Shown: one piece after another, positions 32,428-52,194 of the stretch | Layout of the letters: the number at the start of each line of letters is the position of its first letter | Numbering within the stretch: position 1 is the stretch's first letter | Source: Bacteroidales bacterium | GTDB lineage: Bacteria > Bacteroidota > Bacteroidia > Bacteroidales > GCA-2748055 | Direction: 5' to 3' | Length of the DNA: 64,000 bases | Assembly (NCBI GenBank): GCA_046485075.1 | Contig: JAWOHR010000150.1 | Span: 21,918-85,917 of the forward strand | Notes under the pieces: model-generated | The model's input: the letters and a program-made list of their open reading frames with translations, nothing else | What the model was told of the DNA's origin: nothing | The model's database searches: none | Translations under genes and position numbers: made by a program

Positions 32428-32441
32428 TAGCAATATTGCTA
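32428..32441. promoter_or_regulatory. Perfect 14-bp palindrome TAGCAATATTGCTA upstream of actA (candidate operator)
   Basis: Self-complementary 14-mer ending 36 nt upstream of the actA ATG (32478). Confidence 0.3.
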
Positions 32442-32477
32442 CATAAAATAAAAGCATTCAAAAAACCTGATCTGGAC

Positions 32478-33605: not shown

Positions 33606-33619
33606 ATCCTGATCATCCC

Positions 33620-36562
33620 ATGGAAAAACATTGGAGGAGTTTAGAAGAATATAAGAATGGTACAGACCCTCACCAGGAAAACCGGACTGAGCTTGACAGC
33701 AGGGTGGTGGATGCTCCGGCCTCACGTCGTGATTTCCTTAAATTATTCGGTTTCAGTGCAGCGAGTGCCGCTGTTTTGAGCAGTTGTGAAAAACCGGTAC
33801 AGAAAGCCATCCCTTACCTGATCAAACCCGAACAGGTTACTCCCGGGAAAGCCAGTTATTATGCATCGACCTTTTTCGATGGCACAGAGTATTGCAGTGT
33901 GGTGGTGAAGGTCAGGGACGGCCGTCCCATTAAAATTGAGGGCAACCACCATTCGCCCGTCTCCCGCGGTGGCACCTCCGCACGGGTTCAGGCTTCTGTG
34001 TTGAACCTCTATGATGATGCCCGTTACAAGGAACCTTCAGCAGACGGGAAAACCATCTCCTGGGAGGATGCGGATCAGCTTGTAACCAGCAGGCTTGCTG
34101 AGGGAGGCCGCACGGTGATTCTTACTCCCACGGTCATCAGTCCCTCCAGTGCAGAGGTAATTGGAAATTTCTTCCGGGCCTATCCAAATTCAGAATGGAT
34201 TCAGTATGATGAGGTTTCTGCATCGGGCATCAGGGAGGCTCACCTGGAGGTATTTGGAGCAGCGGTGATCCCCGGTTTTCATTTTGACAGGGCGGGCTAT
34301 ATTCTCTCTTTTGATGCCGACTTTCTTGGAACCTGGCTCACACCCGTGGAGTTTGCCAGGGATTATGCAACCACCAGGGAGGTGAGCAAAGAGAATCCTT
34401 TCATGTCAAAACATGTACAGGTGGAATCGGCGCTCTCCATGACCGGTTCAAATGCCGATGAACGGATTCCAGTCACCCCCAGGGAATCGATGCTGATGCT
34501 GGCTGATATTTACAACAGGCTGGCCGCCGCTTCAGGTCAGCCAAATGTGAAGGCTCCACCCTGTGTGACTGATGTGGGGGACCTTGTCAATGCGTTGCTG
34601 GAGCACAAGGGAACATCCCTGGTGGTGTGCGGATCCAATGATCCTGCTGTGCAAAAGATGGTGGCCGGTATCAACCATATGCTGGGTAACTATGGCACCA
34701 CCCTCGATTTGGAGAGATGCATACAGGTTAAAAAAGGAGATGACAAAGGATTCCTGGCCTTTCTTCAGGAACTGGAAAATGGCGGGGTGGATAACCTGCT
34801 CATGATGGACGTAAACCCGGTATACAGCCTGGGCGGATTTGAAGCCCTGGGTAAAGCCGGATTTACTCTTTATATGGGAAGCGCCCTCAATGAGACTGCC
34901 GGGGCAGCTAAGGTCATCTGTCCCACGCCACATTATCTTGAAGCCTGGGGGGATGCCGAACCGCTTAAAGGCTCCTACAGCCTTCAGCAACCTTGTATTC
35001 ATCCTATATTTAATACCAGGTCTTTCCAGGACTCCCTGTTGACCTGGGCGGGAGAGGAGGCTTCCTACCGCGACAGGCTGGAGTCCTGGTGGAAGAATCA
35101 CATCGCTCCGCCAGAGGAGAGGGGATCGGAACAGTGGTGGGTAAATACTTTGCAGGCAGGATTTTACCAGGACCAAAGGAATCCCTTCCCTGCTTCAGAA
35201 AACTACGCCGCTCCCCATGTGGATATCAATCCACCCCAAAACGATATGGCGCTTACCCTATACACCACGGTGGCTCTGAACGACGGGCGTTATGCCAACA
35301 ATCCGTGGTTACAGGAGTTGCCTGATCCCATTACCAAGGCGTGCTGGGATAACTATCTGTTGGTTTCAGGGGCCGATGCAGCCTCGATGGGGCTTGAGGA
35401 TGAGGAGGTGGTTAAACTCAACGGGATCGATGTTCCTGTAATCATACAGCCCGGGCAGGCCCGGGGAACAGTCTCCATGGCCTTGGGATATGGTCGTACC
35501 AGCTCCGGGAAAGTGGGAAGCAACGTGGGTGTTAACGCTTTTCGGTTTGTGAAGTACATGGATGGTTCCAGATCCTATTGTCTGGATGGGGTTACCATTG
35601 AGAAAACAAACAGGAGTTATCCCATCGCCAGGACTCAAACCCACCACACCATGGAGGGCCGGCCCATCGTGAGGGAGACGACCCTGAAAGAGTTCCAGGG
35701 TGACCCAAATGCGGGGAATCACTTTCACCTGGAGGCAGAGGCTCAACACCAGACCCTTTACCCCGAGGCAAGGTTCGATGGCTTCCACTGGGGACTCATG
35801 GTGGATCTGAACAAGTGTACCGGTTGCAATAACTGCATTGTAGCCTGTACCTCCGAGAACAATGTGGCTGTTGTGGGTAAGGAGGAGGTAAAAAAACGGA
35901 GGATCATGCACTGGATGCGTATCGACCGTTACTTTTCAGATGAACCGGAGAATCCCAGGGTTTTCCACCAGCCTGTGATGTGCCAGCACTGCGACAATGC
36001 TCCATGCGAGAATGTTTGTCCGGTTTCAGCAACCATGCACAGCAATGAGGGTCTCAACCAGGTGGCCTATGTAAGATGTATCGGTACCAAGTATTGCATC
36101 AATAACTGTCCCTACCGGGTAAGGAGATTCAACTGGTACAAGTATATTAAAAACGACAAGTTTGACTATAACCTGAACAGCGATCTGGCACGCCTTGTTC
36201 TGAATCCCGATGTAACGGTTCGTGAGCGCGGGGTGGTGGAGAAGTGCAGCTTCTGCGTGCAGCGGATCCAGGAGAAGAAGATGGAGTCCAAACTTGAGAA
36301 TCGTCCGCTAAAAGATGGAGAGATTCAACCGGCCTGTGTTCAGTCCTGTCCCTCCGGGGCATTGGTATTCGGTAATATGAATGATCCGGAGTCAAAGGTG
36401 AGCAGGCTCAGGATGCAGGAACGGAACTACCACCTTCTGGAACAGTTGCATACCCTTCCGTCGGTTGGGTATCTTACCAGGGTGCGAAATGTGATGCCGG
36501 ATGCAGCTGCCGGAGTTCAACCCGGCCATGAACCGGAAGAGAAACACGATCAACATGGTTAA
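33620..36562 (+). CDS. actB: Alternative complex III subunit ActB (fused B1 molybdopterin-oxidoreductase-like + B2 4Fe-4S ferredoxin-like), Tat signal
   Basis: Start at MEKHWRSLEEY. SRRDFLKLFG twin-arginine motif. C-terminal Cys clusters (CTGCNNCIVAC, CQHCDNAPCENVCP, CIGTKYCINNCP, CSFC...CVQSCP). Confidence 0.9.
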   Translation: MEKHWRSLEEYKNGTDPHQENRTELDSRVVDAPASRRDFLKLFGFSAASAAVLSSCEKPVQKAIPYLIKPEQVTPGKASYYASTFFDGTEYCSVVVKVRDGRPIKIEGNHHSPVSRGGTSARVQASVLNLYDDARYKEPSADGKTISWEDADQLVTSRLAEGGRTVILTPTVISPSSAEVIGNFFRAYPNSEWIQYDEVSASGIREAHLEVFGAAVIPGFHFDRAGYILSFDADFLGTWLTPVEFARDYATTREVSKENPFMSKHVQVESALSMTGSNADERIPVTPRESMLMLADIYNRLAAASGQPNVKAPPCVTDVGDLVNALLEHKGTSLVVCGSNDPAVQKMVAGINHMLGNYGTTLDLERCIQVKKGDDKGFLAFLQELENGGVDNLLMMDVNPVYSLGGFEALGKAGFTLYMGSALNETAGAAKVICPTPHYLEAWGDAEPLKGSYSLQQPCIHPIFNTRSFQDSLLTWAGEEASYRDRLESWWKNHIAPPEERGSEQWWVNTLQAGFYQDQRNPFPASENYAAPHVDINPPQNDMALTLYTTVALNDGRYANNPWLQELPDPITKACWDNYLLVSGADAASMGLEDEEVVKLNGIDVPVIIQPGQARGTVSMALGYGRTSSGKVGSNVGVNAFRFVKYMDGSRSYCLDGVTIEKTNRSYPIARTQTHHTMEGRPIVRETTLKEFQGDPNAGNHFHLEAEAQHQTLYPEARFDGFHWGLMVDLNKCTGCNNCIVACTSENNVAVVGKEEVKKRRIMHWMRIDRYFSDEPENPRVFHQPVMCQHCDNAPCENVCPVSATMHSNEGLNQVAYVRCIGTKYCINNCPYRVRRFNWYKYIKNDKFDYNLNSDLARLVLNPDVTVRERGVVEKCSFCVQRIQEKKMESKLENRPLKDGEIQPACVQSCPSGALVFGNMNDPESKVSRLRMQERNYHLLEQLHTLPSVGYLTRVRNVMPDAAAGVQPGHEPEEKHDQHG

Positions 36563-36579
36563 CAAACAAAAAATATACG

Positions 36580-37974
36580 ATGTATAATACGGAAATCAGG
36601 GGTCCGCTGATCCTGGGGAACAAATCCCTGGGGCAGATTACAGCCGATATCACTTCCCCGCTATATGCACGTCCCAAGTTCTGGTGGATCGTTGGACTTG
36701 GAATCAGTTCGGTGCTGATGCTGCTGGGATTCTGGTCCATTTATGTGACCATCTCGCAGGGGATTGGCACATGGGGGGTCAATAATACCGTGGGTTGGGG
36801 ATGGGCCATCATTAATTTCGTCTGGTGGATCGGGATCGGTCATGCCGGTACCGCCTTCTCCATTTTCCTGCTCATCCTCCGGCAGGAGTGGCGATCGTCC
36901 ATCAACCGTGCTGCAGAAGCAATGACCGTGGTAGCCGTCGGGTGTGCAGCCATCTTTCCGGCCCTTCACATGGGCCGTATCTGGGATGCGTTTTTCATTT
37001 TTCCCTATCCCAATACAAGGGGACCGCTATGGGTCAATTACAATTCACCCCTCTTCTGGGACTTTATAGCCATCTCTGCCTACCTGCTGATCTCCGCCTC
37101 TTTCTGGTACCTGGGAATGATCCCCGACTTTGCCACTATACGCGACAATGCCAAATCTAAAATAAAAAAGGCAGCTTACGGCTTTTTTGCCATGGGCTGG
37201 AGGGGTTCTGTGGGAGAGTGGAAACGTTATGAAGGGCTCAGTTATATCCTGGGTGGCATTGCAGCAGTCCTGGTTGTATCGGTTCATTCGATTGTATCAA
37301 CCGACTTTGCCGTCTCCGTGGAACCCGGCTGGCATACCACCATTTTTCCACCCTACTTCGTGGTGGGGGCTATCTTTTCCGGATTTGGCATGGTGATGAC
37401 CCTGATGATTATCCTTCGCAAAATTTATAAACTGGAAGATTTTGTGACCAATGCACACCTGGATAAAGTGGCTAAAATTCTGATATTCATATCACTGATC
37501 ATGGGGACAGCCTACCTGACAGAAATTTTTGTGGCATGGTACTCGGGCAATGAATATGAGATTTTCACCTTTTTTCACAACCGCATTACCGGCGAGTTTA
37601 CCATCCAGTTCTGGTGCATGTTCATCTTCAATGCCCTGGTGCCGCAGCTCATGTGGTTTAAGAAGATCCGCAGTAACCTGCTGGTGGTGTTCATTATTTC
37701 CATTCTCATTAATGTGGGGATGTGGTTCGAACGGTTTAACATTGTAGTCACCTCCCTTACGAAGGATTATCTCCCCTCAGCCTGGGCAAGCTATTCTCCG
37801 ACAATGGTGGAGATCTCCATGTACCTGGGTACCCTGGGCATTTTTACATTCGGGGTGCTGCTTTTCTTCAAGTATATCCCCATGATCGCCATCAGTGAGG
37901 TGAAAGCGGTGAATAAGTATCAGGTGAACAGTACACACTCTTCAGAGGAAGAAAAGGTTAAAAAAGGAGATTAA
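36580..37974 (+). CDS. actC: Alternative complex III subunit ActC (NrfD/PsrC-family quinol-interacting membrane subunit)
   Basis: 464 aa with ~10 TM. WGWAIINFVWWIGIGHAGT motif typical of NrfD-like proteins. Confidence 0.9.
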   Translation: MYNTEIRGPLILGNKSLGQITADITSPLYARPKFWWIVGLGISSVLMLLGFWSIYVTISQGIGTWGVNNTVGWGWAIINFVWWIGIGHAGTAFSIFLLILRQEWRSSINRAAEAMTVVAVGCAAIFPALHMGRIWDAFFIFPYPNTRGPLWVNYNSPLFWDFIAISAYLLISASFWYLGMIPDFATIRDNAKSKIKKAAYGFFAMGWRGSVGEWKRYEGLSYILGGIAAVLVVSVHSIVSTDFAVSVEPGWHTTIFPPYFVVGAIFSGFGMVMTLMIILRKIYKLEDFVTNAHLDKVAKILIFISLIMGTAYLTEIFVAWYSGNEYEIFTFFHNRITGEFTIQFWCMFIFNALVPQLMWFKKIRSNLLVVFIISILINVGMWFERFNIVVTSLTKDYLPSAWASYSPTMVEISMYLGTLGIFTFGVLLFFKYIPMIAISEVKAVNKYQVNSTHSSEEEKVKKGD

Positions 37975-37978
37975 GACG

Positions 37979-38482
37979 ATGGACACTCAATATTTAATAG
38001 GGGTTTTTGATGATGAGCAATCCATACTCGCAGCATTCCGTAAGATGAAGGAGGAGGCGCTGGAAATCGAGGATGTGTTTACTCCCTACCCCATCCACGA
38101 AATCCTGGATCAACATGGCAAAAAATCCAAAATCACCATTGTGGGGTGGTTTTACGGCCTGTTTTCCGCCCTGGCCGTATTGGCTTTCCTGTTTTACACG
38201 GCTGTAATTGACTGGCCGCTTAATTACGGAGGGAAACCCAGCAGTGCGTTCCCTTCCTTTTTAGTGGTTACCATCATCCTGACCATTTTTAGCATTACCA
38301 TCCTGAGCCTCTTTACCTTCTCGTGGCGCGCCAACCTTTGGCCGAGCAATGAGAAACCGATTTTCCATGAAAGGGCAACCGACGATAAATTTGTGATCCT
38401 GGTGAAAAAGGAGAGGGTGGATCAAAAGAGGGTTGCCCTGGTTTTCAAAGAGGCAGGTGCATCTGAAATTCTAGAAAAGTAA
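37979..38482 (+). CDS. actD: Alternative complex III subunit ActD (DUF3341)
   Basis: 167 aa. Soluble N-domain + 2 TM. Position between actC and actE. Confidence 0.8.
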   Translation: MDTQYLIGVFDDEQSILAAFRKMKEEALEIEDVFTPYPIHEILDQHGKKSKITIVGWFYGLFSALAVLAFLFYTAVIDWPLNYGGKPSSAFPSFLVVTIILTIFSITILSLFTFSWRANLWPSNEKPIFHERATDDKFVILVKKERVDQKRVALVFKEAGASEILEK

Positions 38483-38486
38483 AAAT

Positions 38487-39053
38487 ATGAGCATGATAAG
38501 AAACCTCTCTCTTGCAGCATTTGGTTTACTGGCGATGATCTCGTGCGACAGGACCCGTTCCACCACCGGATGGGATTACATGCCCGATATGTACTATTCA
38601 AATGCCTACGAATCCTACACCCCCAATCCAAATTTTGACGACAGGCTCACCATGAGAATGCCAGTGGAGGGTACTGTGCCGATGGATATGGTACCCTATC
38701 CCTGGAAGAAAACCGATGAGGACCGGATTTCCGCAGGCGAGGCCCTGGTGAATCCATGGGAGGCAACAGCAGAGAATCTTGCAAGGGGTGAGGCAGCTTA
38801 TGGAATATTCTGTACCTCATGTCACGGAGAGAGAGGGGATGGCCAGGGATTTCTCTTTACCAGTAAAAAATACCCCTTTCCCCCTGCCAGTCTGATCAAT
38901 GAAAAAGTGACTGCCCTGAGGGACGGGGAGATCTATCACTCCATCACGGTGGGATACGGGATCATGGGTGCCCATGGAGGCATGATCCGGCAGGATGATC
39001 GCTGGAAGATCATTTTACACATTCGTGAGAACCTTCAACAACAGGCGCCCTAA
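38487..39053 (+). CDS. actE: Alternative complex III subunit ActE, monohaem cytochrome c lipoprotein
   Basis: Lipobox LLAMISC. Single CTSCH motif followed by GERGDGQG. Confidence 0.8.
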   Translation: MSMIRNLSLAAFGLLAMISCDRTRSTTGWDYMPDMYYSNAYESYTPNPNFDDRLTMRMPVEGTVPMDMVPYPWKKTDEDRISAGEALVNPWEATAENLARGEAAYGIFCTSCHGERGDGQGFLFTSKKYPFPPASLINEKVTALRDGEIYHSITVGYGIMGAHGGMIRQDDRWKIILHIRENLQQQAP

Positions 39054-39064
39054 ATTCATTTCAC

Positions 39065-40228
39065 ATGGAAGAGAGACTCAAATTATCCCGGATCTATATC
39101 ATTGGAACCTTGACCATGATTGCCATTGGAATCGCGGCAATGGTGATTGCCTTCTCGGGTGATCCTCAAAGGGCATGGGCCAACTACCTGTTAAACAATG
39201 TCTATTTTCTCTCCCTTGCCGTGGGGGCCATGCTGTTTTTATCCATCCAGCGGGTAACACACTCGGGCTGGTCTGCCGGTTTCATTCGGGTTCCTGAAGC
39301 AATGGGGGCCTATATTCCTGTGGCAGCAGTGCTTTTCCTGCTACTGATCCCCGGCGCACATTCACTCTACCACTGGTCACATGTTGATGCGGTCTCACAC
39401 GATCCGTTACTGGCACATAAGGCTCCCTACCTGAACCTTCCCTTCTGGGTGACCAGGATGGTGGTCTATTTCGGACTATGGATCCTGATGACAGGGCTGC
39501 TCCGGCGTCTCTCACGGAAAGAGGACCAATCCGGAGGCATCACTTACTTTAAAAAAGGGGAGCACTATGCCAGGATCTATATTTTTATCGTCATTATTAC
39601 CTTCACATTTGCCATGATCGACTGGGTCATGTCTATCGATGCCCACTGGTACAGCACCATTTTTGCCATCAGAAACTTTGTGGCTGCATTTCACCATGCC
39701 TCCATTGTGATCGCCTTTGTGGTTTTGATTCTCCACCAGCGCGGGTACTTTCCATTTCTGACAAAATATCACGTGGGTGATTTTTCCAGGTACATTTTCA
39801 TGTTGTGTATTATCTGGGGCTACTTCTGGTTTTCGGAATTCATGCTGATCTGGTATGCCAACATTCCCGAAGAGACCGTCTATTTCGTCACCCGTCTCAG
39901 GGGAGAAGGTTGGAGAACCTTTTTCTTTGCCAACATCCTGATTAACTGGTTTCTCCCGTTTGTATTACTGATGCCAAAAGCCACGGCCCAAAACAAGCTG
40001 GTGGTGAAAATCGTGATTCCGTTTTTGATCGTGGGGCAGTTTATCGATCTCTACATGCAGATATTCCCCGGTACAGTTGGCAAACAGGTACTTGGTTTCC
40101 AGGAGATCGGCATGTTCATCGGGTTTGCAGGATTGTTCATGTTGGTGATCGGGTATGCATTGACCCGGGCCAGTCTTTACCCCGTCAACCACCCCTACCT
40201 GGGGGAGTGCAAAAATCATCATACCTGA
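39065..40228 (+). CDS. actF: Alternative complex III subunit ActF (second NrfD-like membrane subunit)
   Basis: 387 aa, polytopic. Position after actE. Confidence 0.8.
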   Translation: MEERLKLSRIYIIGTLTMIAIGIAAMVIAFSGDPQRAWANYLLNNVYFLSLAVGAMLFLSIQRVTHSGWSAGFIRVPEAMGAYIPVAAVLFLLLIPGAHSLYHWSHVDAVSHDPLLAHKAPYLNLPFWVTRMVVYFGLWILMTGLLRRLSRKEDQSGGITYFKKGEHYARIYIFIVIITFTFAMIDWVMSIDAHWYSTIFAIRNFVAAFHHASIVIAFVVLILHQRGYFPFLTKYHVGDFSRYIFMLCIIWGYFWFSEFMLIWYANIPEETVYFVTRLRGEGWRTFFFANILINWFLPFVLLMPKATAQNKLVVKIVIPFLIVGQFIDLYMQIFPGTVGKQVLGFQEIGMFIGFAGLFMLVIGYALTRASLYPVNHPYLGECKNHHT

Positions 40229-40232
40229 AAGA

Positions 40233-41072
40233 GTGACCCACCCCTATCGCTATTTTCACTTTCTCAGTCTCGACATAGTACTTGGAGCGGTAGCCACCTC
40301 GGTGCTGGCTGCCAGACTCTTTTCGGCAAATCCGGGGTGGGCCTGGTGGGCCTCCCTGGCCATGACCATCTGGATCCTTTACATGGGCGACCATCTTCTG
40401 GATGCATGGAAACACCGGAAAAACAGTCACCGCGAGATGCACAAAGTGATTTTCACAAACAAACGCAATCTGATATACATCCTAGGTATGGTTACCGTGG
40501 TCAATCTGTTCGTGGTATTTAATTTTCTTGACCCCGGCATGCTGAAAGCATCACTGCTGCTGGGGGGGGCGGTATTCCTGTTTTACGCCATGCGACACAT
40601 TTTCAAACGGAACCGGTTGCTATTTATTCCGGGTGAGGTTTTTGTACTGATCCTTTATATGACCGGAACCTGGATGGGCCCCTTCATTTCCCGTACACTC
40701 CCCGTCACCTCGGGCCATATCCTGGTTCTGATCATGATGGCCGGAGTTCTCCTTCTGAATCTTGGTGTGATCTCCCTTTATGATGCCGGGATCGACAAAC
40801 GGCTGGGGATCTCAACCCTGGCCGGAACACTAGGCAAAAAGGCAACCCGAAACCTGATGATCGCCACGGCCATTCTGGTTCTGGTGATGGCCCTGCTTCA
40901 GTTCCTGGTTTATGGAGCAGAACGCGCATCCAGGTTTGCCTTGATCCTGGCAGGAATGGAAGGATTGCTTCTCTGGGTACTGCTGAGGCCCTCCCTGTTC
41001 AGAAAACAGGAGGCATACCGACTGGTTGCCGATGCGATCCTCTACATGGGCTTCCTCTCCCTTCTTATTTAA
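40233..41072 (+). CDS. Divergent UbiA-superfamily-like polytopic membrane protein (function unknown)
   Basis: 279 aa with ~8 TM. GTG start 5 nt after the actF stop. Two Asp-rich motifs: YMGDHLLDAWKHRKN and LYDAGIDKRLGISTLAGTLG. Confidence 0.45.
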   Translation: MTHPYRYFHFLSLDIVLGAVATSVLAARLFSANPGWAWWASLAMTIWILYMGDHLLDAWKHRKNSHREMHKVIFTNKRNLIYILGMVTVVNLFVVFNFLDPGMLKASLLLGGAVFLFYAMRHIFKRNRLLFIPGEVFVLILYMTGTWMGPFISRTLPVTSGHILVLIMMAGVLLLNLGVISLYDAGIDKRLGISTLAGTLGKKATRNLMIATAILVLVMALLQFLVYGAERASRFALILAGMEGLLLWVLLRPSLFRKQEAYRLVADAILYMGFLSLLI

Positions 41073-41118
41073 AAGTGAATATGGCCATTGCCCCTAAAAG
41101 TGAATATGGCCATTGCCC
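41070..41118 (+). repeat. Perfect 24-nt direct repeat at 25-nt period (TAAAAGTGAATATGGCCATTGCCC x2), first copy includes the TAA stop
   Basis: Copies at 41070..41093 and 41095..41118. A partial inverted copy (GGCCATATTC) lies at 41170..41179. Confidence 0.9.
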
Positions 41119-41216
41119 TCCTCGCTTAAAACCTTCGTAAACGAATGTTTATAGGCTTCGGAGTCCAACGGCCATATTCCCTATGTTGCGAAAGGTTATC
41201 AAACGAGGCAGCCTAC

Positions 41217-41235
41217 AATTCGTTGAAAACGAATT
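41217..41235. terminator. Perfect 8-bp hairpin AATTCGTT-GAA-AACGAATT between convergent operons
   Basis: Lies 73 nt downstream of the minus-strand HMA gene stop and 145 nt downstream of the plus-strand stop. No U-tract. Confidence 0.3.
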
Positions 41236-41307
41236 TCAGCAACAAGTTTGATATCCTGAAGCAAAGAAAGGATTAAACAAGATAGACCTCAAAAGGAAAG
41301 GGAATGC

Positions 41308-41634
41308 CTAAATTTCCCCAACAACCTCGTAGCCGGTCTCGGCGATCTTTGCAGAGATCTCATCCACTGAAGTGAGGTTCTCGTCGAACTTCACTTTGGT
41401 CCACTTTTCCTCAAAGGAGGACTCCACGGTAGCAATTCCGTCAAGGGCTTTGACCCCGGCATTTATTGCATTCTCACAACCCTCGCAGGTCATGCCGTTT
41501 ACATTAAGAACCACTTCAACCCATTGGGCATCAGCGGAGATTTCGGTCTTCTCTGCCTGGGATGCATCTGTTTTTGGTGGTGTATTACAGGCCACCATCC
41601 ACAGGGTAGCCAGTCCGATCCATAAAATTTTCAT
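41308..41634 (-). CDS. Exported heavy-metal-associated (HMA, CopZ-like) domain lipoprotein
   Basis: 108 aa. Lipobox LWMVAC. Ferredoxin-like HMA domain with GMTCEGC metal-binding motif. Confidence 0.8.
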   Translation of the reverse strand: MKILWIGLATLWMVACNTPPKTDASQAEKTEISADAQWVEVVLNVNGMTCEGCENAINAGVKALDGIATVESSFEEKWTKVKFDENLTSVDEISAKIAETGYEVVGEI

Positions 41635-41645
41635 AGGTTCAGGTT

Positions 41646-42101
41646 TTAATAATCAAGTGTTAAAATCCGGCCTTCCGTGAAGTCCAGGAATCTCTCTTTT
41701 TCTGCAATTTTCAAGCCATCCCGGAGATCGTCATTTTCAACTCCTGCAACTTTCATGCAGGCTGGACAGGCCAGGATCTCCACACCGCGGTTGAGCAAGC
41801 GTTCAAAAATCTCGTCCGACGCATCGAAAGGATCCATCTTCAGATTTGGGGCATCGTTCACTACCATGTCGATGCCGTCCTGATCAAAGAATACCAGTAC
41901 ATCATGGGTGGTTGAGAACTTATCTGCAAGCATCAGAGCCATCAGCACGGCATGGGAATCTTCAGCACCTTTGCTGATGTGGATGAAGACTCCGTCGGTC
42001 TTCTTTTCTGATTGTTCAGCCGAAGCAGGTGCCTGTTCCACACGGAGGCATGCCACAGTAAGGAGTGGGATCAGAAGGAGCATAAATGTTTGTTTCATCA
42101 T
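41646..42101 (-). CDS. Exported DsrE/DsrF-like fold lipoprotein with CPAC motif
   Basis: 151 aa. Lipobox LLTVAC. Pattern VFIHISKG...VLVFFDQDGI...GVEILACPACMKVAG resembles DsrE-family (COG1416-like) proteins. Confidence 0.55.
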   Translation of the reverse strand: MMKQTFMLLLIPLLTVACLRVEQAPASAEQSEKKTDGVFIHISKGAEDSHAVLMALMLADKFSTTHDVLVFFDQDGIDMVVNDAPNLKMDPFDASDEIFERLLNRGVEILACPACMKVAGVENDDLRDGLKIAEKERFLDFTEGRILTLDY

Positions 42102-42113
42102 TGTCAGGGGGTT

Positions 42114-43004
42114 TTAGTAAATGGTTGTTTCGACTAATTTATTGGCAATCAATGCCAGGATGATCACCAGGTAGAACAAATTTACAGTAATAAATGCCTT
42201 TTTCCAATGTTGTATCAGATCGCCCCGGTAAGAAAGTCTGAACATCCTGATCAAAAAGCCTATGCTAAGGATAATCAGCAGTGCCGAGATCAGCCGGTTT
42301 CCCATCATGGGTGTCACTGGCAGCATCAGAACAATCACGGCGGTTGCGGCAATCCAGATAAAGCTCAGGTTTCTGATCTGGCGGGGCAGCAGCAGGTTGG
42401 TGATTACCGGCAACCCTGCATCCCTGAACTGGCTCCCGACTTTCAGAAGGAGGAGCCAATAGTGAGGCATTTGTCCCACGAAAAGCAAAAATGATACGGA
42501 CAAAATCTCCAGGTCCCATGGTGATCCTCCGGCAGCAGTCCACCCGATCAGTGGAGGAAGGGCACCAATGAGTGCTCCCGGGAAAACTGCAAAAGCTGTA
42601 ATCCGCTTCAGCGGGGTGTAGACCCCGTTATACCAGATCAGGGTAAACAGCCCGATGGCCGCCGCCAGGGGTTTACCCGGGAGTACCAGGATCACAACTC
42701 CTGCAAGCGAGAAAATCATAGAGATCAGGATCGCATGCCGGAGTTTGATCTTACCTGCCGGGATGGGCCTTCCCCGGGTGCGATCCATCAGGGCATCGGT
42801 CTCTCTCTCCTGGATCTGGTTGAGGGTACCCGATCCCATGGAGAGAAGAAACACGCCGGAAATGACCAGCCATGCATCTTTGTCCAGGAGGGGGGTGTGG
42901 AGGAAATAACCGAGAAAACCGGTCAGGGCTACAGGCAGGGCAATGGTAAATTTGCCCAGTTTTAAAACTGCATAAAGATATGAACCGCCTGATTTTCTAC
43001 TCAT
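42114..43004 (-). CDS. ctaB: Protohaem IX farnesyltransferase (haem O synthase)
   Basis: 296 aa, UbiA family. NQIQERETDALMDRTRGRPIPAG motif. 8-nt overlap with the subunit II gene. Confidence 0.9.
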   Translation of the reverse strand: MSRKSGGSYLYAVLKLGKFTIALPVALTGFLGYFLHTPLLDKDAWLVISGVFLLSMGSGTLNQIQERETDALMDRTRGRPIPAGKIKLRHAILISMIFSLAGVVILVLPGKPLAAAIGLFTLIWYNGVYTPLKRITAFAVFPGALIGALPPLIGWTAAGGSPWDLEILSVSFLLFVGQMPHYWLLLLKVGSQFRDAGLPVITNLLLPRQIRNLSFIWIAATAVIVLMLPVTPMMGNRLISALLIILSIGFLIRMFRLSYRGDLIQHWKKAFITVNLFYLVIILALIANKLVETTIY

Positions 43005-43950
43005 TGAGTTCTTTCAGATACTCGATAATCAGTTTGAGCTCCTCTTCGCTGACCATCCCTTCATAGGAGAGCATCAGGCCTTTTCCGTATCCTTTCACAA
43101 TATCGGCGTTGGGATCGTATATGGAACGTTTTACATACTCCTCATCCATCACCTGCTCACGCTCCTCCCTGCCGGTTAAAACGGTTCGGGTCGTTCCCCA
43201 ACCACTTAGGTAGGAGGGCCCTACCAGCTTGGATCCATCCTGGGAATGGCAAGCATTACAGCCATTTTTCTGAAGAACGGCCCACCCCTGATCAGCCAGT
43301 GAGGCTTCTGAACCCACAGCCGGGCCGGTTACCGCCGTCGTATCGGTAATCCAGGCTTCAAACTCATCCCCGGGCATTACAATCACGGCTGAATTCATAT
43401 AGGAATGCTCCAGACCGCAGTATTCTGCACAAAAAAGATCAAACCTTCCAACGGTCCCGGGGATGAACCACATCACCTTATCCTGCCCGGGAACCATATC
43501 CTCCTTGACCCGGAAGGCCGGGATATACAGGGCGTGAAGAACATCCAGAGCCACCAGGTCGAGAATAACCGGTTCATTGAGGGGGACATAAAGCGTGTCG
43601 GTGATTTTTCCATTTTCATACTGAAACTGGAAATTCCACATTCTTGCAATGGCCTTTACATGCATGGCCTCATCCGGCGGATTCTTCATGGGCCGCCATC
43701 CCATCCATCCAAAATAGAACATAATAAGCACCAGGATCAATGGAATGGCTGTCCAGATCAACTCTAGCCTGGTGCTTCCTTCATTTTGTACGGCCCTGGG
43801 ATGCTTCTCCTTCCTGTATTTGTAAATGAACACAATCATCAGGATGGTTAGGCCGATCAGAAAGAAGGCTGAGATACCAAGGATCAACATGAAGGCCAGG
43901 TCAACGCCATGGACAAAATTGGAAGCTTCTTGTGGAACAGCAGTATACAT
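42997..43950 (-). CDS. ctaC: Cytochrome c oxidase subunit II with fused C-terminal cytochrome c domain (caa3-type)
   Basis: Start set at MYTAVPQEA (ATG 43950, 11 nt after the subunit IV stop). Two TM. CuA site FCAEYCGLEHSYM. C-terminal CNACH haem c motif. Confidence 0.9.
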   Translation of the reverse strand: MYTAVPQEASNFVHGVDLAFMLILGISAFFLIGLTILMIVFIYKYRKEKHPRAVQNEGSTRLELIWTAIPLILVLIMFYFGWMGWRPMKNPPDEAMHVKAIARMWNFQFQYENGKITDTLYVPLNEPVILDLVALDVLHALYIPAFRVKEDMVPGQDKVMWFIPGTVGRFDLFCAEYCGLEHSYMNSAVIVMPGDEFEAWITDTTAVTGPAVGSEASLADQGWAVLQKNGCNACHSQDGSKLVGPSYLSGWGTTRTVLTGREEREQVMDEEYVKRSIYDPNADIVKGYGKGLMLSYEGMVSEEELKLIIEYLKELNE

Positions 43951-43961
43951 GGACTGGGAGT

Positions 43962-44246
43962 TTATCTGAATGCGAAATCGAGGAAAGTAATGATTATAAC
44001 AGCGGTAAACAGAAGAAAGACGAATCCGGTCATAAGCCTGAACATCCGCTCGCCAAACCTTAAGTGCATAAAAATGGCAAGAACCACGAACGATTTGACA
44101 GAAGCCAGCAGCAGGGCCACAGCGGTGGACCATTTGGTGAGTTCAATCTGTGTCACTGCCACAGATGTTGCTGTCAGGGTCAGCAACAGAAGGAGAATGA
44201 GACCGTAGGTCCGGTAGGATACAATATGGTGTGTTGATTCAGACAT
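43962..44246 (-). CDS. Cytochrome c oxidase subunit IV (prokaryotic COX4_pro-type)
   Basis: 94 aa with 3 TM. Begins MSESTHHIVSYRTYGLILL. Confidence 0.7.
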   Translation of the reverse strand: MSESTHHIVSYRTYGLILLLLLTLTATSVAVTQIELTKWSTAVALLLASVKSFVVLAIFMHLRFGERMFRLMTGFVFLLFTAVIIITFLDFAFR

Positions 44247-44257
44247 ATGCTAAACAT

Positions 44258-44875
44258 TTAAGTAATCAGGTAAAACAACGGGAAAAGGAAAATCCAGATG
44301 AGATCCACCAGGTGCCAGTATAGTCCGCCGTTTTCAAGCAACTGGAAATTGTCAAAGGTGAGTTGATCCTTCCATACCCTGACAAAACCGAATCCAAGCA
44401 GAACCATTCCCACAATGATATGGAGTGCATGCAGCCCGGTCATAAAAAAATAGAGTCCGAAAAAGAGTATATCCCCCTGTCCGAGATCATCCAGCACAGG
44501 GGAGCCGGGGAATAGCCCGTGACCGATCTTGCCGCTCCATTCGAAATATTTGTTCACCAGGAAAACCAGGGCCAGAACCAGTGTGGTGCCAATCAGCAAC
44601 AGGGTGGTCCGTTTGTCCTTCTTCTGGATCGCTGTCGTAGACATGGCAATGGTCATACTGCTGACCAGCAAGATCACCGTGTTGATGGTTCCAATGGTCA
44701 CATCCAGTTCCTGTGCTGCAATATGAAAGGCCTGGTGGTTTTTGAAACGGTAAACAGAATAGACGATAAAGAGCCCGCCAAACAGCAGCAGTTCGGTAAA
44801 AATGAATAGCCACATGCCAAGCTTGGAACCCAGATCATCCCTGTGCTCATTATGGTGTACAGTGGTTTCAGACAT
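44258..44875 (-). CDS. ctaE: Cytochrome c oxidase subunit III
   Basis: 205 aa with 5 TM. GLHALHIIVG and YWHLVDLIWIFLFPLFY motifs. Confidence 0.9.
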   Translation of the reverse strand: MSETTVHHNEHRDDLGSKLGMWLFIFTELLLFGGLFIVYSVYRFKNHQAFHIAAQELDVTIGTINTVILLVSSMTIAMSTTAIQKKDKRTTLLLIGTTLVLALVFLVNKYFEWSGKIGHGLFPGSPVLDDLGQGDILFFGLYFFMTGLHALHIIVGMVLLGFGFVRVWKDQLTFDNFQLLENGGLYWHLVDLIWIFLFPLFYLIT

Positions 44876-44886
44876 AAAAATGCGAT

Positions 44887-46497
44887 TTAATCAAACTTAT
44901 AGGTTGCTTTGTCGATCACCGGAACCTCATCAAAGTTCTCCAGGGAGGGTGGTGACTGAATCCTCCACTCCAGGCCGGTTCCGCCCCAGGGATTGTGCGC
45001 GGCGATTGGGCCGCTTCGGGCAGATTTGATCAGGTTTGTGATCGTGATGATCAAACCGGTGATCATGACCAGAGCCCCGAATGAAGAGATGATATTCGGA
45101 CCATGGAACTCTTCAAGGTAATCAAAGTAACGGCGTGGCATCCCTTTGATTCCCAGGTAGAACATCGGACCGTACAGGGAGACAAATCCAATGAAAAAAA
45201 TGATCCATCCCGTCCTGGCCCAACTATTGTCATACATTCGGCCGTAGATGACCGGAAACCAGTAGTGGATGGCCCCGAAAAAGGCAAACCCCACACCTCC
45301 GAACACGATGAAGTGAAAATGGGCCACCACAAAAGCTGTATCATGTACATGTACATTGGTGGCCAGTGCACCCAGAACAAGTCCGGTGAGTCCGCCGATC
45401 ATAAAGATGAAAATAAATGAAGAGGCCCACAGAAACGGAACCTCAAGACTGATGGAACCCCTGTGCATGGTTGAGATCCAGTTAAAGACCTTGATGGCAC
45501 TCGGGATGGCCACAATAAAGGTAAGGATCGAAAATGTAAAGAGTGCGGTGCCGCTCATGCCCGAGGTGAACATGTGGTGCGCCCATACAAAATAGCCCAC
45601 AAAAGCAATGGCAATTGTGGAGATCACCATGGCCGTATACCCAAAAATGGTCTTCTTTGTAAAGGTGGGGATAATCTCCGTAATGGCCCCCATTGCCGGA
45701 AGGATCATGATGTATACCGCCGGGTGAGAATAGATCCAGAAAAGATGCTGATAGAGCAGGGGATCGCCCCCTTTGGCCGGATCAAAGAATCCGATACCGA
45801 GAATCCGCTCGCCGGCAACCATCAGCAGGGTAATTCCCACAATGGGGGTGGCAAGCAACTGAATCCAGGCCGTTCCGTAAAGGGTCCAGGGAAACAGGGG
45901 CATTTTCATCCAGGTCATCCCCGGTGCCCGCATCCTGTGAATGGTTACGATAAAATTCAACCCGGTAAGAATGGACGAGAACCCAAGTACGAATGCGCCA
46001 AGGGCGGCGGGCAGCATATTGGTTCCCGTTTTAAAGCTATAGGGGGCATAGAAGGTCCACCCGGTATCGGGAGGTCCGTTTCCAAAAAGGGAGACGATCA
46101 CCAGTATGGAACCCAAAACATAGATGTACCATGAAAAAAGGTTCAGCCTCGGGAAAGCCACATCCCTGGCCCCGATCTGAATGGGCAGCAGGAAATTTCC
46201 GAAAACAGCCGGAAGGCCGGGGATCACGATTAAAAAAATCATAATCACCCCATGCACTGTAAATGTGGCATTATATGCCTGCGGGCCCATAAGGGTTTTG
46301 CCCGGGGCAATCAGCTCAAGTTTCATGAGAAGCCCCAATATCACCCCGATGGTAAACCAGGCCATCATGGAGTAGAGATAGAGCAGTGCAATCCTTTTGT
46401 GGTCGGTGGAGAGAATCCATTTGAAGATTCCCTTTCTTCCCATATCCTCCTCCAAATAGGTTTTATAACCTCTGCTCTCCGAATTTTGTGAAGTCAT
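44887..46497 (-). CDS. ctaD: Cytochrome c oxidase subunit I (haem-copper oxidase, A-type)
   Basis: 536 aa. WFFGHP-like region (LFWIYSHPAVYIMILP), VWAHHMF, HDTAFVVAHFHFIVFGG. Confidence 0.97.
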   Translation of the reverse strand: MTSQNSESRGYKTYLEEDMGRKGIFKWILSTDHKRIALLYLYSMMAWFTIGVILGLLMKLELIAPGKTLMGPQAYNATFTVHGVIMIFLIVIPGLPAVFGNFLLPIQIGARDVAFPRLNLFSWYIYVLGSILVIVSLFGNGPPDTGWTFYAPYSFKTGTNMLPAALGAFVLGFSSILTGLNFIVTIHRMRAPGMTWMKMPLFPWTLYGTAWIQLLATPIVGITLLMVAGERILGIGFFDPAKGGDPLLYQHLFWIYSHPAVYIMILPAMGAITEIIPTFTKKTIFGYTAMVISTIAIAFVGYFVWAHHMFTSGMSGTALFTFSILTFIVAIPSAIKVFNWISTMHRGSISLEVPFLWASSFIFIFMIGGLTGLVLGALATNVHVHDTAFVVAHFHFIVFGGVGFAFFGAIHYWFPVIYGRMYDNSWARTGWIIFFIGFVSLYGPMFYLGIKGMPRRYFDYLEEFHGPNIISSFGALVMITGLIITITNLIKSARSGPIAAHNPWGGTGLEWRIQSPPSLENFDEVPVIDKATYKFD

Positions 46498-46500
46498 ATG

Positions 46501-47268
46501 TTACTGAGTTTTTCTTTTTCTGTAAAACAGGAGTACAATAAACAGAACCAGTGCCAGGAAGATGATCAATGTGGCCGAAACTTTGGTAATGTTCAGTACA
46601 TATTGCTGTCCCTGTGGATCCAGGGAGTAGCAATATTGCAGAACGCGGTTGATGGTTGGACCCGATTTACCTGCACCGGCATCGATAATCGACATTTTGA
46701 GTTCGAAGGGGAGGAAGTAGATCCCGTTCAAATACCTGGAAATCTTTCCCTCTGGGGTCAGGATAATCAGTGTGGCTGCATGTATGAAGTCGTTTCCGGT
46801 GGGCTTGTACCTGAATCCTGTGGCCCCGGTCAGCCGGGCAATGCTGGCACTGTCGCTGGTGAAGAAGAGCCATCCGTTTTCGGCCTCCTCCTTTTTCTTC
46901 ATCAGGTTCAGGTAATTGTTCTTTTTGTGAATGGCAAGGTCGGTGTTCTCCCTTGCATCGAAGCTGATGGTCAGTGCCTGGTAATCCCTGCCCAGTACCA
47001 GGTCGGTCCCGTCCATGGCATTGGAGAGGCCGTCCATCAGCGGGGAGCAGATACCGGGACACCGGAAGTAGACAAAATTCAGGATCGTGGGTTTGTCGAT
47101 CAAATCACCAATGATAACCGTATCCCCGTGTTCGTCCACCAGCATGGCGTCCATGGGGATGTACTGATTGAGTTTCTCAATGATGCCAATCTCCAGTTCA
47201 GCTTCCTGTTGCGCATTGATCACACCAAAAGTGATCAGCAGGATGATTGTGGTCAGGATTTTATTCAT
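46501..47268 (-). CDS. SCO1/SenC-family copper chaperone (thioredoxin fold), C-terminal TM anchor
   Basis: 255 aa. FVYFRCPGICSPL (CxxxC) and downstream conserved His (DFIHAATL). First gene of the oxidase operon. Confidence 0.85.
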   Translation of the reverse strand: MNKILTTIILLITFGVINAQQEAELEIGIIEKLNQYIPMDAMLVDEHGDTVIIGDLIDKPTILNFVYFRCPGICSPLMDGLSNAMDGTDLVLGRDYQALTISFDARENTDLAIHKKNNYLNLMKKKEEAENGWLFFTSDSASIARLTGATGFRYKPTGNDFIHAATLIILTPEGKISRYLNGIYFLPFELKMSIIDAGAGKSGPTINRVLQYCYSLDPQGQQYVLNITKVSATLIIFLALVLFIVLLFYRKRKTQ

Positions 47269-47387
47269 TGCATATATTTAACAAATATCCGTTGAAATGG
47301 GTTGATATAAGTACTAAAGATGGTAAAAATTTTGTCTATTTATAGCAAATAAAAATAAACAACCCTGATCAGTACGGTTTAGATTTA

Positions 47388-47395
47388 TAAATTTG
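47388..47395 (+). promoter_or_regulatory. Candidate -7 promoter box TAAATTTG for the cyd operon
   Basis: Exact TAnnTTTG match 20 nt upstream of the DUF4492 ATG. The same decamer TATAAATTTG precedes tRNA-His. No clear -33 box. Confidence 0.3.
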
Positions 47396-47415
47396 TTAAC
47401 CGAACTTTATGAAAA

Positions 47416-47619
47416 ATGATTAAAAGGGTTTTCAGGTTCTATTATGAAGGTTTCAGGAGCATGACCTGGGGGAAGAAATTGTGGGGAATTGTGCTGATCA
47501 AGCTATTTATCATGTTCGCCATCCTTCGGATCTTTTTTTTCCCTGATATCCTGAAACGAGACTTTTCATCGGACGAAGAACGAAGCAATTATGTACTGGA
47601 ACAACTCACTAATCCTTAA
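47416..47619 (+). CDS. DUF4492 small membrane protein (Bacteroidota cyd-operon leader gene)
   Basis: 67 aa. FRFYYEGFRSMTWGKKLWGIVLIKLFIMFAILRIFFFP. Immediately upstream of cydA. Confidence 0.6.
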   Translation: MIKRVFRFYYEGFRSMTWGKKLWGIVLIKLFIMFAILRIFFFPDILKRDFSSDEERSNYVLEQLTNP

Positions 47620-47624
47620 AACAA

Positions 47625-49187
47625 ATGATCGATTCAATTGATATGTCTTTGGTGGACTGGTCAAGGGGGCAATTTGCCCTCACCGCCATGTTTCACTGGA
47701 TTTTCGTGCCATTGACACTCGGTCTCTCATTCATCGTGGCCTTCATGCACACCATATACTTCCGGACCGGTGATGAGGAGTGGAAGCGGATCACCAAATT
47801 CTGGATGAAACTATTCGGGATCAATTTTGCAATCGGGGTCTCCACGGGAATTATCCTTGAATTTGAATTCGGAACCAACTGGTCCAACTACTCGTGGTTC
47901 GTGGGGGATATATTCGGAGCGCCCCTGGCCATTGAAGGAATTCTGGCCTTTTTCATGGAGTCCACCTTTATCGCCGTAATGTTCTTCGGATGGAATAAAG
48001 TGAGTAAACGCTTTCATCTGACCGCCTCCTGGCTCACTGCAATTGGAGCCAATCTGTCGGCCGTCTGGATCCTGGTCGCCAATGCCTGGATGCAACATCC
48101 GGTTGGAACAGCCTTTAACCCCGAGACTGCCCGTAATGAAATGACCAGCTTCTGGGATGTGATATTCTCCGATGTGGCAGTCAATAAGTTTCTTCATACG
48201 GTTACCTCCAGTTTCCTTTTGGGTTCCCTTTTCGTAATCGCGGTCAGCGCCTGGTTTCTGCTTCGGAAAAGGGAGGTGCTTTTTGCAAAGCGAAGTACGA
48301 TTGTCGCTTCGGTTTTCGGGGTTATTGCTGCCATCGCCACCATTACCACAGGCGATACTTCTGCAAGGATCGTGGCCAGGAAACAACCCATGAAATTTGC
48401 AGCCATGGAGGCCCTTTACGAAGGACAGACCCATGCGCCGCTGGTGGCCATCGGGGCCATGCGTACCGATACCACAAAAATCCCCAATCCGCGCGAGGAT
48501 TTTATCTTTAAAATCGAGATTCCCAATGCCCTCTCCTACATGGTTTTCCTGACCCCCAGCGGATTTGTTCCAGGGATTACAGACCTGGTATACGGGAACG
48601 CGGAGCAGGGAATTATCTCTTACGAGAGTAAAATTCAAAGGGGAGTCGTGGCCATACAAACCCTGAAGGAATTGAAAAAGGCGAAGGAGAGAGGGGATGA
48701 AGCCACCTATACGGCCCTGCTGGATAAATTCGGGGATCCGGAGTGGCTCAATACATATTACCAGTACCTCGGGTATGGTTATTACAACGGAAGGGAGCTG
48801 AAAGAGCTGATACCCAATGTGAAATTAAATTTCTACTCCTTTCATGTGATGGTGATGCTGGGATTACATTTCATGATTTTAACCCTGATTGTTCTTTGGT
48901 TAAGCCTAAAGAACAGGTGGGGAGATCATAAATGGCTGTTATGGGTAGCCATCATCACCCTCCCCATGCCCTGGATCGCCAGTCAGAGTGGATGGCTGGT
49001 GGCCGAGATGGGCAGGCAGCCCTGGGTGGTTTATGAGCTGATGCCGACCATTTCAGCCGTAACCAAGCTGAGTCCGGGAGCCGTGCAGGCAACCTTCTGG
49101 ATCTTCCTGGCCACCTTTACCATCCTGTTCATTGCCGAAGTAAAAATTATGGTTACACAGATTAAAAAAGGACCTGGAGGGAAATAG
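47625..49187 (+). CDS. cydA: Cytochrome bd ubiquinol oxidase subunit I
   Basis: 520 aa. FHWIFVPLTLG, GWNKVSK, long Q-loop, C-terminal GWLVAEMGRQPWVV. Confidence 0.95.
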   Translation: MIDSIDMSLVDWSRGQFALTAMFHWIFVPLTLGLSFIVAFMHTIYFRTGDEEWKRITKFWMKLFGINFAIGVSTGIILEFEFGTNWSNYSWFVGDIFGAPLAIEGILAFFMESTFIAVMFFGWNKVSKRFHLTASWLTAIGANLSAVWILVANAWMQHPVGTAFNPETARNEMTSFWDVIFSDVAVNKFLHTVTSSFLLGSLFVIAVSAWFLLRKREVLFAKRSTIVASVFGVIAAIATITTGDTSARIVARKQPMKFAAMEALYEGQTHAPLVAIGAMRTDTTKIPNPREDFIFKIEIPNALSYMVFLTPSGFVPGITDLVYGNAEQGIISYESKIQRGVVAIQTLKELKKAKERGDEATYTALLDKFGDPEWLNTYYQYLGYGYYNGRELKELIPNVKLNFYSFHVMVMLGLHFMILTLIVLWLSLKNRWGDHKWLLWVAIITLPMPWIASQSGWLVAEMGRQPWVVYELMPTISAVTKLSPGAVQATFWIFLATFTILFIAEVKIMVTQIKKGPGGK

Positions 49188-49189
49188 TT

Positions 49190-52172: not shown

Positions 52173-52194
52173 AAAAGATTCAAACGAATAGATT

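Follow-up and report, generated by a model that had tools for sequence, protein, structure and literature searches.

A DsrE-fold CxxC lipoprotein and an HMA-domain lipoprotein at the end of a Bacteroidales caa3 oxidase operon: a possible accessory module for copper-centre maturation

Insertion of copper into respiratory oxidases is understood in few models, namely alpha-proteobacteria, Thermus, Bacillus, Streptomyces and mitochondria, and to our knowledge nothing is known about it in Bacteroidota or in those sediment anaerobes that occasionally respire oxygen. The process has been called 'a theme with variations' (PMC6696091). Assembly of the CuA centre needs Sco, a soluble Cu(I) chaperone, which is PCuAC or mitochondrial Cox17, and a thiol reductant, which may be TlpA, Sco itself or COA6 (PMC6696091; PMC7558416). 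In the TlpA-ScoI-PcuC pathway of Bradyrhizobium, with Sco and PCuAC likewise in Thermus, an anchored extracytoplasmic CxxC protein, Sco and a small Cu(I) chaperone act on subunit II (PMC6696091; PMC7558416). Here we describe a stretch of 64,000 nucleotides from a Bacteroidales bacterium (GenBank assembly GCA_046485075.1, contig JAWOHR010000150.1, positions 21,918 to 85,917; hereafter the window), in which the genes of a caa3-type oxidase are followed by genes for two small lipoproteins, one of DsrE fold with a CPAC motif and the other with an HMA domain and a GMTCEGC motif. We favour, tentatively and at somewhat less than an even chance, the reading that this pair is a lipid-anchored periplasmic accessory module which matures the copper centres of the oxidase encoded upstream.

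The lipoprotein genes are the last two of a minus-strand operon with the order SCO-coxI-III-IV-II-ctaB-DsrE-like-HMA, as given by the open reading frames (ORFs) of the window (Table 1). The gap between the end of ctaB (42114) and the start of the DsrE-like gene (42101) is 12 nt, and that between the end of the DsrE-like gene (41646) and the start of the HMA gene (41634) is 11 nt. An earlier reading of the same DNA (hereafter the original prediction) had placed both genes behind ctaB on the same strand at these distances and had assigned them to the sco-cta operon. Its coordinates, gaps and motifs were found to be correct and, given the tight gaps and the conserved synteny, both genes do belong to this operon.

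Conservation of the arrangement was surveyed in one genome per GTDB species, where 163 of 185,579 representatives matched the DsrE-like protein; 80 of these were fetched, and their neighbours were surveyed by searching for degenerate DNA motifs, by which variants may be missed. The order coxI...coxII-ctaB-DsrE-like-HMA was observed in all 18 Bacteroidota species loci (L001-L018, every one from a metagenome-assembled genome, MAG), at 54-97% identity. Wherever the flank was sufficient, the coxI motif lay about 3.2 kb and the CuA motif about 1.3 kb upstream, and an HMA motif followed in the same orientation after 100-300 nt; the GMHC variant of L006 was missed by the motif search and recovered from the ORFs. 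The HDTxxVVxHFH motif of coxI is kept in related loci, and the CuA motif lies upstream of the DsrE-like gene in 16 of the related loci. A 1.28-Mb contig of 71% identity, L081, shows the same order when annotated with Pfam: cydBA and DUF4492 are divergent, SCO-COX1-COX3-COX4-COX2-UbiA-DsrE-HMA follow on one strand, and a UbiA-like gene and alternative complex III (ACIII) are convergent to them. Linkage of the pair to oxidase operons, the absence of which, together with PCuAC and Cox11 homologues elsewhere in the genome, had been named as grounds for dropping the proposal, is thus conserved in 18 of 18 species loci and in L081.

A second Bacteroidota lineage, comprising Lentimicrobiaceae and some Bacteroidales, carries the pair in the inverted order HMA then DsrE-like (L020, L026, L033, L044 and L127, the order in L127 being read solely from its upstream HMA motif). 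What lies upstream of the inverted pair differs: ctaB and coxII in L026, a divergent SCO-like gene in L020, divergent ACIII in L033, and in L044 a divergent P-type ATPase of the CcoI/FixI type with ATPase-cat_bd, HMA and E1-E2 domains. Since the adjacency of the two genes outlasts this inversion of gene order, it argues that both proteins work together.

The operon had been described as having SCO and as being without PCuAC and Cox11, and this stood. PCuAC and Cox11 were seen neither within 10 kb on either side of the syntenic genes of L081 nor in the window ORFs that were scanned. The marks of PCuAC are the profile PF04314 and the motif H(M)X10MX21HXM, and neither window lipoprotein matches PF04314. 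The window SCO gene has the CxxxC expected of SCO1/SenC and matches the Pfam profile SCO1-SenC at 23.7 bits, barely past the cut-off of 22.8, with residues 43-115 covered; the gene in the SCO position of L081 is a similarly weak match. The SCO-like protein is divergent in form, with CPGIC in place of the usual CxxxCP and an anchor which is C-terminal and not N-terminal, and the same form is found in L020 and L081.

The assignment of the first lipoprotein to the DsrE fold, which had been put forward as open to refutation by profile searches, held. It matches Pfam PF02635 (DsrE) at 35.6 bits against a cut-off of 22.7 (E 1.2e-8), and the family profile A2 matches PDB entry 3mc3 with E 4.3e-7. An AlphaFold2 model built on 26 relatives, whose pLDDT is 82 for the whole chain and exceeds 93 in residues 40-130, agrees with this: the top 15 PDB matches found with Foldseek are all of the DsrE, TusBCD or YchN type at a probability of 1.0, and include SSO1126 (2qs7), 3mc3, MTH1491 (1l1s), YchN (1jx7), DsrEFH (2hy5) and TusBCD (2d1p). 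NCBIfam returned only very weak DsrE2 and YedF matches at E <=1, and there was no Pfam match to the thioredoxin family. The protein is 100% identical to the entry 'MAG: DsrE family protein [Bacteroidales bacterium]', and its family is labelled 'predicted peroxiredoxin' by JGI.

Its signal peptide ends in LLTVAC, and in the mature protein CPAC is the sole Cys pair. According to the model, Cys112 stands at the end of strand 108-111 and N-caps helix 113-119, so that the CPxC occupies a strand-to-helix position resembling the CxxC sites of thioredoxin and HMA domains. Cys112 aligns with the conserved Cys of 3mc3, 1l1s and 2pd2 in sequence and profile alignments, and this strand-to-helix position is the one that carries the persulfide in DsrE and TusD. 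Cys115 is specific to the family of the window protein. Invariant across phyla are DG.F.H (containing His41), His50, CPxC and the C-terminal end GRIL(T/S)LDY. Distant members keep the CxxC, as CRTC or CKPC, and have lost His41 and/or His50; this weakens the candidate Cys2His2 metal site that the invariant residues might have formed.

The DsrE/DsrF-like family is known as a cytoplasmic one. With DsrEFH, TusBCD and YchN (PF02635) the window protein shares the fold and the position of the active-site Cys, but it is a lipoprotein, has a second invariant Cys (CPxC), and is without paralogous partners or TusA, DsrC or TusE neighbours, as judged within 10 kb on either side in L081. A further likeness is found in SaoD (the CD2369 family of the SAO system), which is DsrE-like with an invariant CxxC and has relatives beside metallochaperone and metal-import genes, metal handling having been proposed for it on bioinformatics alone (10.1101/2022.07.06.499078). 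However, SaoD has another invariant Cys, whereas the window protein in its mature form has only the CxxC, and the SAO neighbourhood (a MerB-like selenoprotein and others) is absent here, the neighbours being cox genes.

The second lipoprotein was called an HMA protein, and it matches PF00403 over profile positions 1-62 of 62 (E 2.1e-13). Its signal peptide ends in LWMVAC and a linker of about 25 residues precedes the domain; GM.C.GCE is invariant among its relatives (alignment A3), and the mature protein has one Cys pair only. Both products are therefore exported lipoproteins with a single Cys pair each, as had been proposed, the lipobox Cys being invariant in the relatives of both (Table 1). 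Database names for the HMA protein and its homologues are 'cation transporter', which is that of a 100% identical entry from a Bacteroidales MAG, and 'copper chaperone'. In having a full-length HMA domain with GMxCxxC it resembles CopZ and MerP, and it is extracytoplasmic like MerP. It differs from them in being a lipoprotein with a linker, where CopZ is a small protein of the cytoplasm, in scoring below equivalog cut-offs (for the CopZ models NF033795 and NF033794, 65 bits against 91 and 50 against 95), in lying in an oxidase operon, always beside the DsrE-like gene, and in having no cop or mer genes with it.

A different copper chaperone accompanies the DsrE-like gene in Desulfobacterota. 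In 15 loci of this phylum the DsrE-like gene, whose product has a Sec signal and a CPGC motif, heads a three-gene unit DsrE-like, PCuAC, SCO in which the gaps measure 40 and 29 nt. SCO1/SenC matches at E 1.4e-41, and the PCuAC neighbour in L040, which served as the positive control for PF04314, at E 5e-36. Six genome loci, two of which come from one MAG, carry the unit, as do 9 of 9 metagenome contigs with >=83% identity and enough downstream DNA; a cultured carrier of the PCuAC-SCO type is Deltaproteobacteria bacterium IMCC39146 (L056). The constant set is therefore the DsrE-like protein, SCO and a Cu(I) carrier, and HMA or PCuAC is the interchangeable part. The strongest support for assigning the PCuAC role to the HMA lipoprotein, and for an action of the DsrE-like protein on or together with these chaperones, comes from this comparison of two phyla: DsrE-like and SCO are encoded with HMA in one of them and with PCuAC in the other.

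Gene structure, export signals, folds, motifs and the linkage to oxidase and copper-chaperone genes were all observed directly, and on these we base a scheme for the favoured copper-centre maturation module. Since SCO, an HMA carrier and a CxxC protein, each of them facing the periplasm, are all encoded in the operon, the HMA lipoprotein would be the Cu(I) donor and the DsrE-fold lipoprotein its dithiol partner. The HMA lipoprotein may bind Cu(I) at GMTCEGC and serve as an extracytoplasmic carrier, the role that PCuAC has elsewhere. The DsrE-fold protein would be a TlpA-like dithiol/disulfide partner, which has retained the catalytic Cys of its family and gained a second Cys three residues on, and its CPxC could keep the cysteines of SCO, of the CoxII CuA site and of the HMA domain reduced, or free of sulfane sulfur, and so ready for copper. 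Copper binding, the direction of transfer, the reductase chemistry and the source of electrons are steps that we infer.

Compared with TlpA-ScoI-PcuC, the roles and location appear alike: the window CxxC protein is anchored, its CxxC lies at a helix N-terminus, and it is linked to Sco and coxII. However, it has a DsrE fold where TlpA has the thioredoxin fold, the carrier is an HMA ferredoxin-like domain where PCuAC is cupredoxin-like, and the window system is known from genes alone. Mitochondria show the same division of labour, COA6 acting as thiol reductase for Sco and COX2 and Cox17 as the small Cys-based Cu(I) carrier that replaces PCuAC (PMC7254062; PMC6696091); folds and lineage are unrelated, and the likeness is one of analogy only. 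A broader and more doubtful suggestion is that the exported DsrE-fold CPxC proteins, a small family not recognised before, represent a novel type of extracytoplasmic thiol/copper relay factor in haem-copper oxidase biogenesis, doing the job of TlpA with a sulfur-carrier fold, and that the HMA lipoprotein has solved the problem of periplasmic Cu(I) delivery independently for a third time, after PCuAC and Cox17. In a sub-variant of this scheme, the DsrE-like protein would strip sulfane sulfur from copper-ligand cysteines and thereby allow copper centres to assemble in sulfidic sediments.

The wider family was found to be rare and mainly from uncultured, sediment-type lineages, with 581 clusters at 50% identity (E <=1e-3, of 1.84 billion). 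At 90% identity at least 2459 clusters are homologous to the DsrE-like protein, and the window genes are real ones. In the cultured cyanobacterium Pleurocapsales LEGE 10410 (L074, 7983-8351) the homologue has 122 aa and no signal, and from its sequence it appears to be a cytoplasmic branch of an otherwise exported family. A pyridine-nucleotide disulfide oxidoreductase gene begins 28 nt after it and is followed by Usp, rhodanese and a YeeE-type sulfur transporter in an apparent operon. Elsewhere the gene adjoins a membrane thioredoxin, thioredoxin reductase and DUF302 (L075), lies near a CoA-disulfide-reductase/rhodanese fusion, DUF302 and a ZIP gene (L083), or neighbours a 1-Cys peroxiredoxin (L057). 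Metal-type neighbours across the family are ZIP, ferritin-like and bacterioferritin genes. Neighbourhoods in KSB1, Planctomycetota, Acidobacteriota and several metagenome loci gave no useful information. In P0355 and P0363 an N-terminal BOF domain (the YgiW/YdeI-type periplasmic OB-fold stress domain) is fused to the DsrE-like domain, and other long members are lipoproteins in which the linkers are of low complexity and the CxxC reads CRTC or CKPC; no fusion to HMA, PCuAC or SCO was found among the family members. We conclude that the chemistry of the family is general and CxxC-based, and that the partnership with copper chaperones is a lineage-specific use of it.

Some further features of these neighbourhoods were noted. 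DUF302 proteins are encoded beside the DsrE-like gene in two unrelated phyla (L083, 7213-7635; L075, 8514-8984). A loose set of ferritin-like/DUF2202, SAM methyltransferase, ICMT/PEMT-type methyltransferase, DUF134, Nitro_FeMo-Co and radical SAM genes recurs at L083 4853-7181, L074 6706-9378, L087 5410-6984, L057 3729-7730 and L025 8413-9174, in Verrucomicrobia, a cyanobacterium, an anammox-like planctomycete, Ignavibacteria and Phycisphaerae. In L085 and L089 the DsrE-like gene is preceded by ORFs of 39 aa that are not related to one another.

Several observations weigh against a dedicated copper-maturation module. Outside the two copper-linked clades the DsrE-like gene is usually solitary or stands beside thiol/sulfur-redox or other metal genes, and such heterogeneous neighbours argue that the family is not copper-specific. 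Among about 70 metagenome loci of <=72% identity to the Desulfobacterota type, none showed PCuAC or SCO motifs in a motif search that can miss variants, and L127 alone has an adjoining HMA motif. The linked loci may represent perhaps three or four independent evolutionary events. In L020, L026, L033 and L044 the genes downstream of the inverted pair are DUF4492-cydAB, at 14-130 nt where this was measurable, and cytochrome bd contains no copper. An electron donor of the CcdA/DsbD type was seen neither in the Pfam-annotated 10 kb on either side in L081 nor in the window ORFs scanned. We know of no DsrE-fold disulfide reductase, and the functional case is drawn wholly from gene neighbourhood. The original proposal of a copper/thiol relay thus gains from the DsrE-like-PCuAC-SCO units of Desulfobacterota and from the CcoI/FixI-type ATPase in L044, but it loses by the position of the inverted pair upstream of cydAB and by the breadth of the family.

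Part of the same evidence could also be read as metal carriage. The DsrE-like protein might itself be a relay for Cu(I) or soft metal between HMA or PCuAC and SCO or CuA, using CPxC, possibly with His41 and His50, and no redox catalysis. We consider this unlikely. In its favour, in both copper-linked lineages the tight same-strand partners are HMA, PCuAC and SCO and not thiol-redox enzymes, and the ATPase of L044 (divergent) and the ZIP gene of L083 are further metal-trafficking neighbours. Two His and two Cys are invariant in 19-20 sequences from many phyla, the SaoD family has relatives beside the AztC/AztD metal-import genes, and a relay would require no electron donor and would suit the many solitary genes. 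However, distant members dispense with the His residues, disulfide-reductase, thioredoxin or rhodanese genes adjoin the gene in three loci, and no DsrE-fold metalloprotein is known to us. The disulfide-reductase and thioredoxin neighbours favour redox chemistry over metal carriage, by a narrow margin only, because the operon partners in the copper lineages are metal-trafficking proteins and because SaoD offers a precedent. In a protective role, the pair would not be an assembly factor for the copper centres; it would guard the envelope in general against oxygen, copper or sulfide stress and be co-located and co-regulated with the aerobic island of ACIII, caa3 and cytochrome bd. This seems less probable again than metal carriage. 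It is consistent with the flanking of the window cox operon by cydAB and ACIII, with possible co-transcription of the inverted pair with a copper-free oxidase in four loci, with the two BOF fusions, and with 1-Cys peroxiredoxin, catalase, bacterioferritin, rubrerythrin-like and Usp genes as neighbours elsewhere in the family. The catalase and bacterioferritin neighbours, however, lack signal peptides and hence are cytoplasmic, the slot after ctaB is fixed in 18 species, and protection leaves unexplained both the DsrE-like-PCuAC-SCO unit and the constant Cu(I)-chaperone-type partner.

Two more familiar functions are very improbable by comparison. The pair could belong to mercury-type heavy-metal resistance, as a MerP-like periplasmic HMA protein with a thiol protein, since the HMA protein has its best NCBIfam match in the C-terminal part of MerTP, MerP (TIGR02052) is also matched, and 'mercuric ion transport protein' is the name that JGI gives to one homologue. 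These scores are far under their cut-offs (70.6 bits against 180 and 36.6 against 92.55), no merA, merT, merR or other efflux gene was found in the operon or in the scanned parts of the window, and the place of the pair within a respiratory operon is conserved; mercury resistance was rejected on the sub-cut-off scores and the missing mer genes. The DsrE-like protein could equally be a classical persulfide carrier like DsrEFH or TusBCD that sits in the operon by coincidence, for it retains the fold and the conserved Cys of that family, and L074 and L083 have rhodanese and sulfur-transport neighbours. However, it is exported and lipid-anchored, a second Cys has been added and is invariant, two phyla have kept its linkage to copper chaperones, and no DsrF/H, TusB/C, TusA or DsrC gene lies within 10 kb on either side in L081. 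A cytoplasmic sulfur relay of the classical kind was rejected on account of the export signal and the missing partner subunits.

A full-text search of a literature library returned no paper joining DsrE with PCuAC, copper chaperones or copper lipoproteins, and two reviews of bacterial copper trafficking mention no DsrE-like component (PMC6696091; PMC7558416). The earlier remark that no described pairing of this kind was known therefore stands as far as copper chaperones are concerned, but SaoD is a bioinformatic precedent for a metal-linked DsrE-like CxxC protein. Metallochaperone modules for oxidase copper centres are known as a kind, and the folds found here would be new for them. If the copper-maturation reading is true, the DsrE fold of sulfur relays has been taken over into the periplasm, where it serves metallochaperones as a CxxC factor; HMA domains can stand in for PCuAC outside the cytoplasm; and the division of labour among Sco, chaperone and reductant has arisen anew from unrelated folds. 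About 2,500 proteins that currently bear the label 'predicted peroxiredoxin' or 'DsrE family protein' would then also gain a testable function.

Table 1. Positions in the window of the oxidase operon genes and of the cysteine motifs of its two terminal lipoproteins
Feature	Position	Strand	Basis or remark
SCO-like protein, 255 aa, operon gene 1	46501..47268	-	signal peptide, CPGIC, C-terminal membrane anchor
coxI, haem-copper oxidase subunit I, holds CuB	44887..46497	-	syntenic gene of L081 matches PF00115
coxIII	44258..44875	-	syntenic gene of L081 matches PF00510
coxIV (prokaryotic COX4)	43962..44246	-	syntenic gene of L081 matches PF03626
coxII, caa3 type: CuA motif CAEYCGLEHSYM and C-terminal cytochrome c domain	42997..43950	-	sequence; homologues
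ctaB, haem O synthase	42114..43004	-	Pfam UbiA E 5e-38; NCBIfam cyoE_ctaB E 1.6e-44, below model cut-off
DsrE-fold lipoprotein, 151 aa	41646..42101	-	Pfam DsrE; structural model and Foldseek
Lipobox Cys18 codon, DsrE-like protein	42048..42050	-	read from DNA; invariant in 26 relatives
CPAC (Cys112-Cys115)	41757..41768	-	DNA TGT CCA GCC TGC
HMA-domain lipoprotein, 108 aa, final operon gene	41308..41634	-	Pfam HMA
Lipobox Cys16 codon, HMA protein	41587..41589	-	read from DNA; invariant in 18 relatives
GMTCEGC, predicted metal-binding motif	41476..41496	-	DNA GGC ATG ACC TGC GAG GGT TGT

The coxII ORF as called mechanically (42997-44133, minus strand) overlaps coxIV by 172 nt. The true start is probably Met62 at 43950, which gives a protein of 317 aa, like the homologues in L026 and L081 (317 and 316 aa), and an 11-nt gap after coxIV. 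Scans for promoters and terminators over 40900-47700 gave results at chance level.

A complete ACIII operon, actABCDEF (32436-40228, plus strand), is convergent to the cox operon and DUF4492-cydAB (47416-50320, plus strand) is divergent from it; together the three form a respiratory island of about 18 kb, which is kept in L081. Right after actF lies a UbiA-like gene (40233-41072, plus strand) matching the 'LA_0991 family prenyltransferase-like' model of NCBIfam (E 1.6e-37, below cut-off), in the same position as in L081 and L006. The DUF4492 ORF encodes 67 aa (47416-47619, plus strand; Pfam E 2.5e-31) and ends 5 nt upstream of cydA; a DUF4492 gene also precedes cydAB in L026, L033, L044 and L081. 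Downstream of the cyd genes, in the window (51330-53106, plus strand) as in L081, are serine acetyltransferase-like and cysteine synthase (PALP) genes, which probably serve ordinary cysteine biosynthesis.

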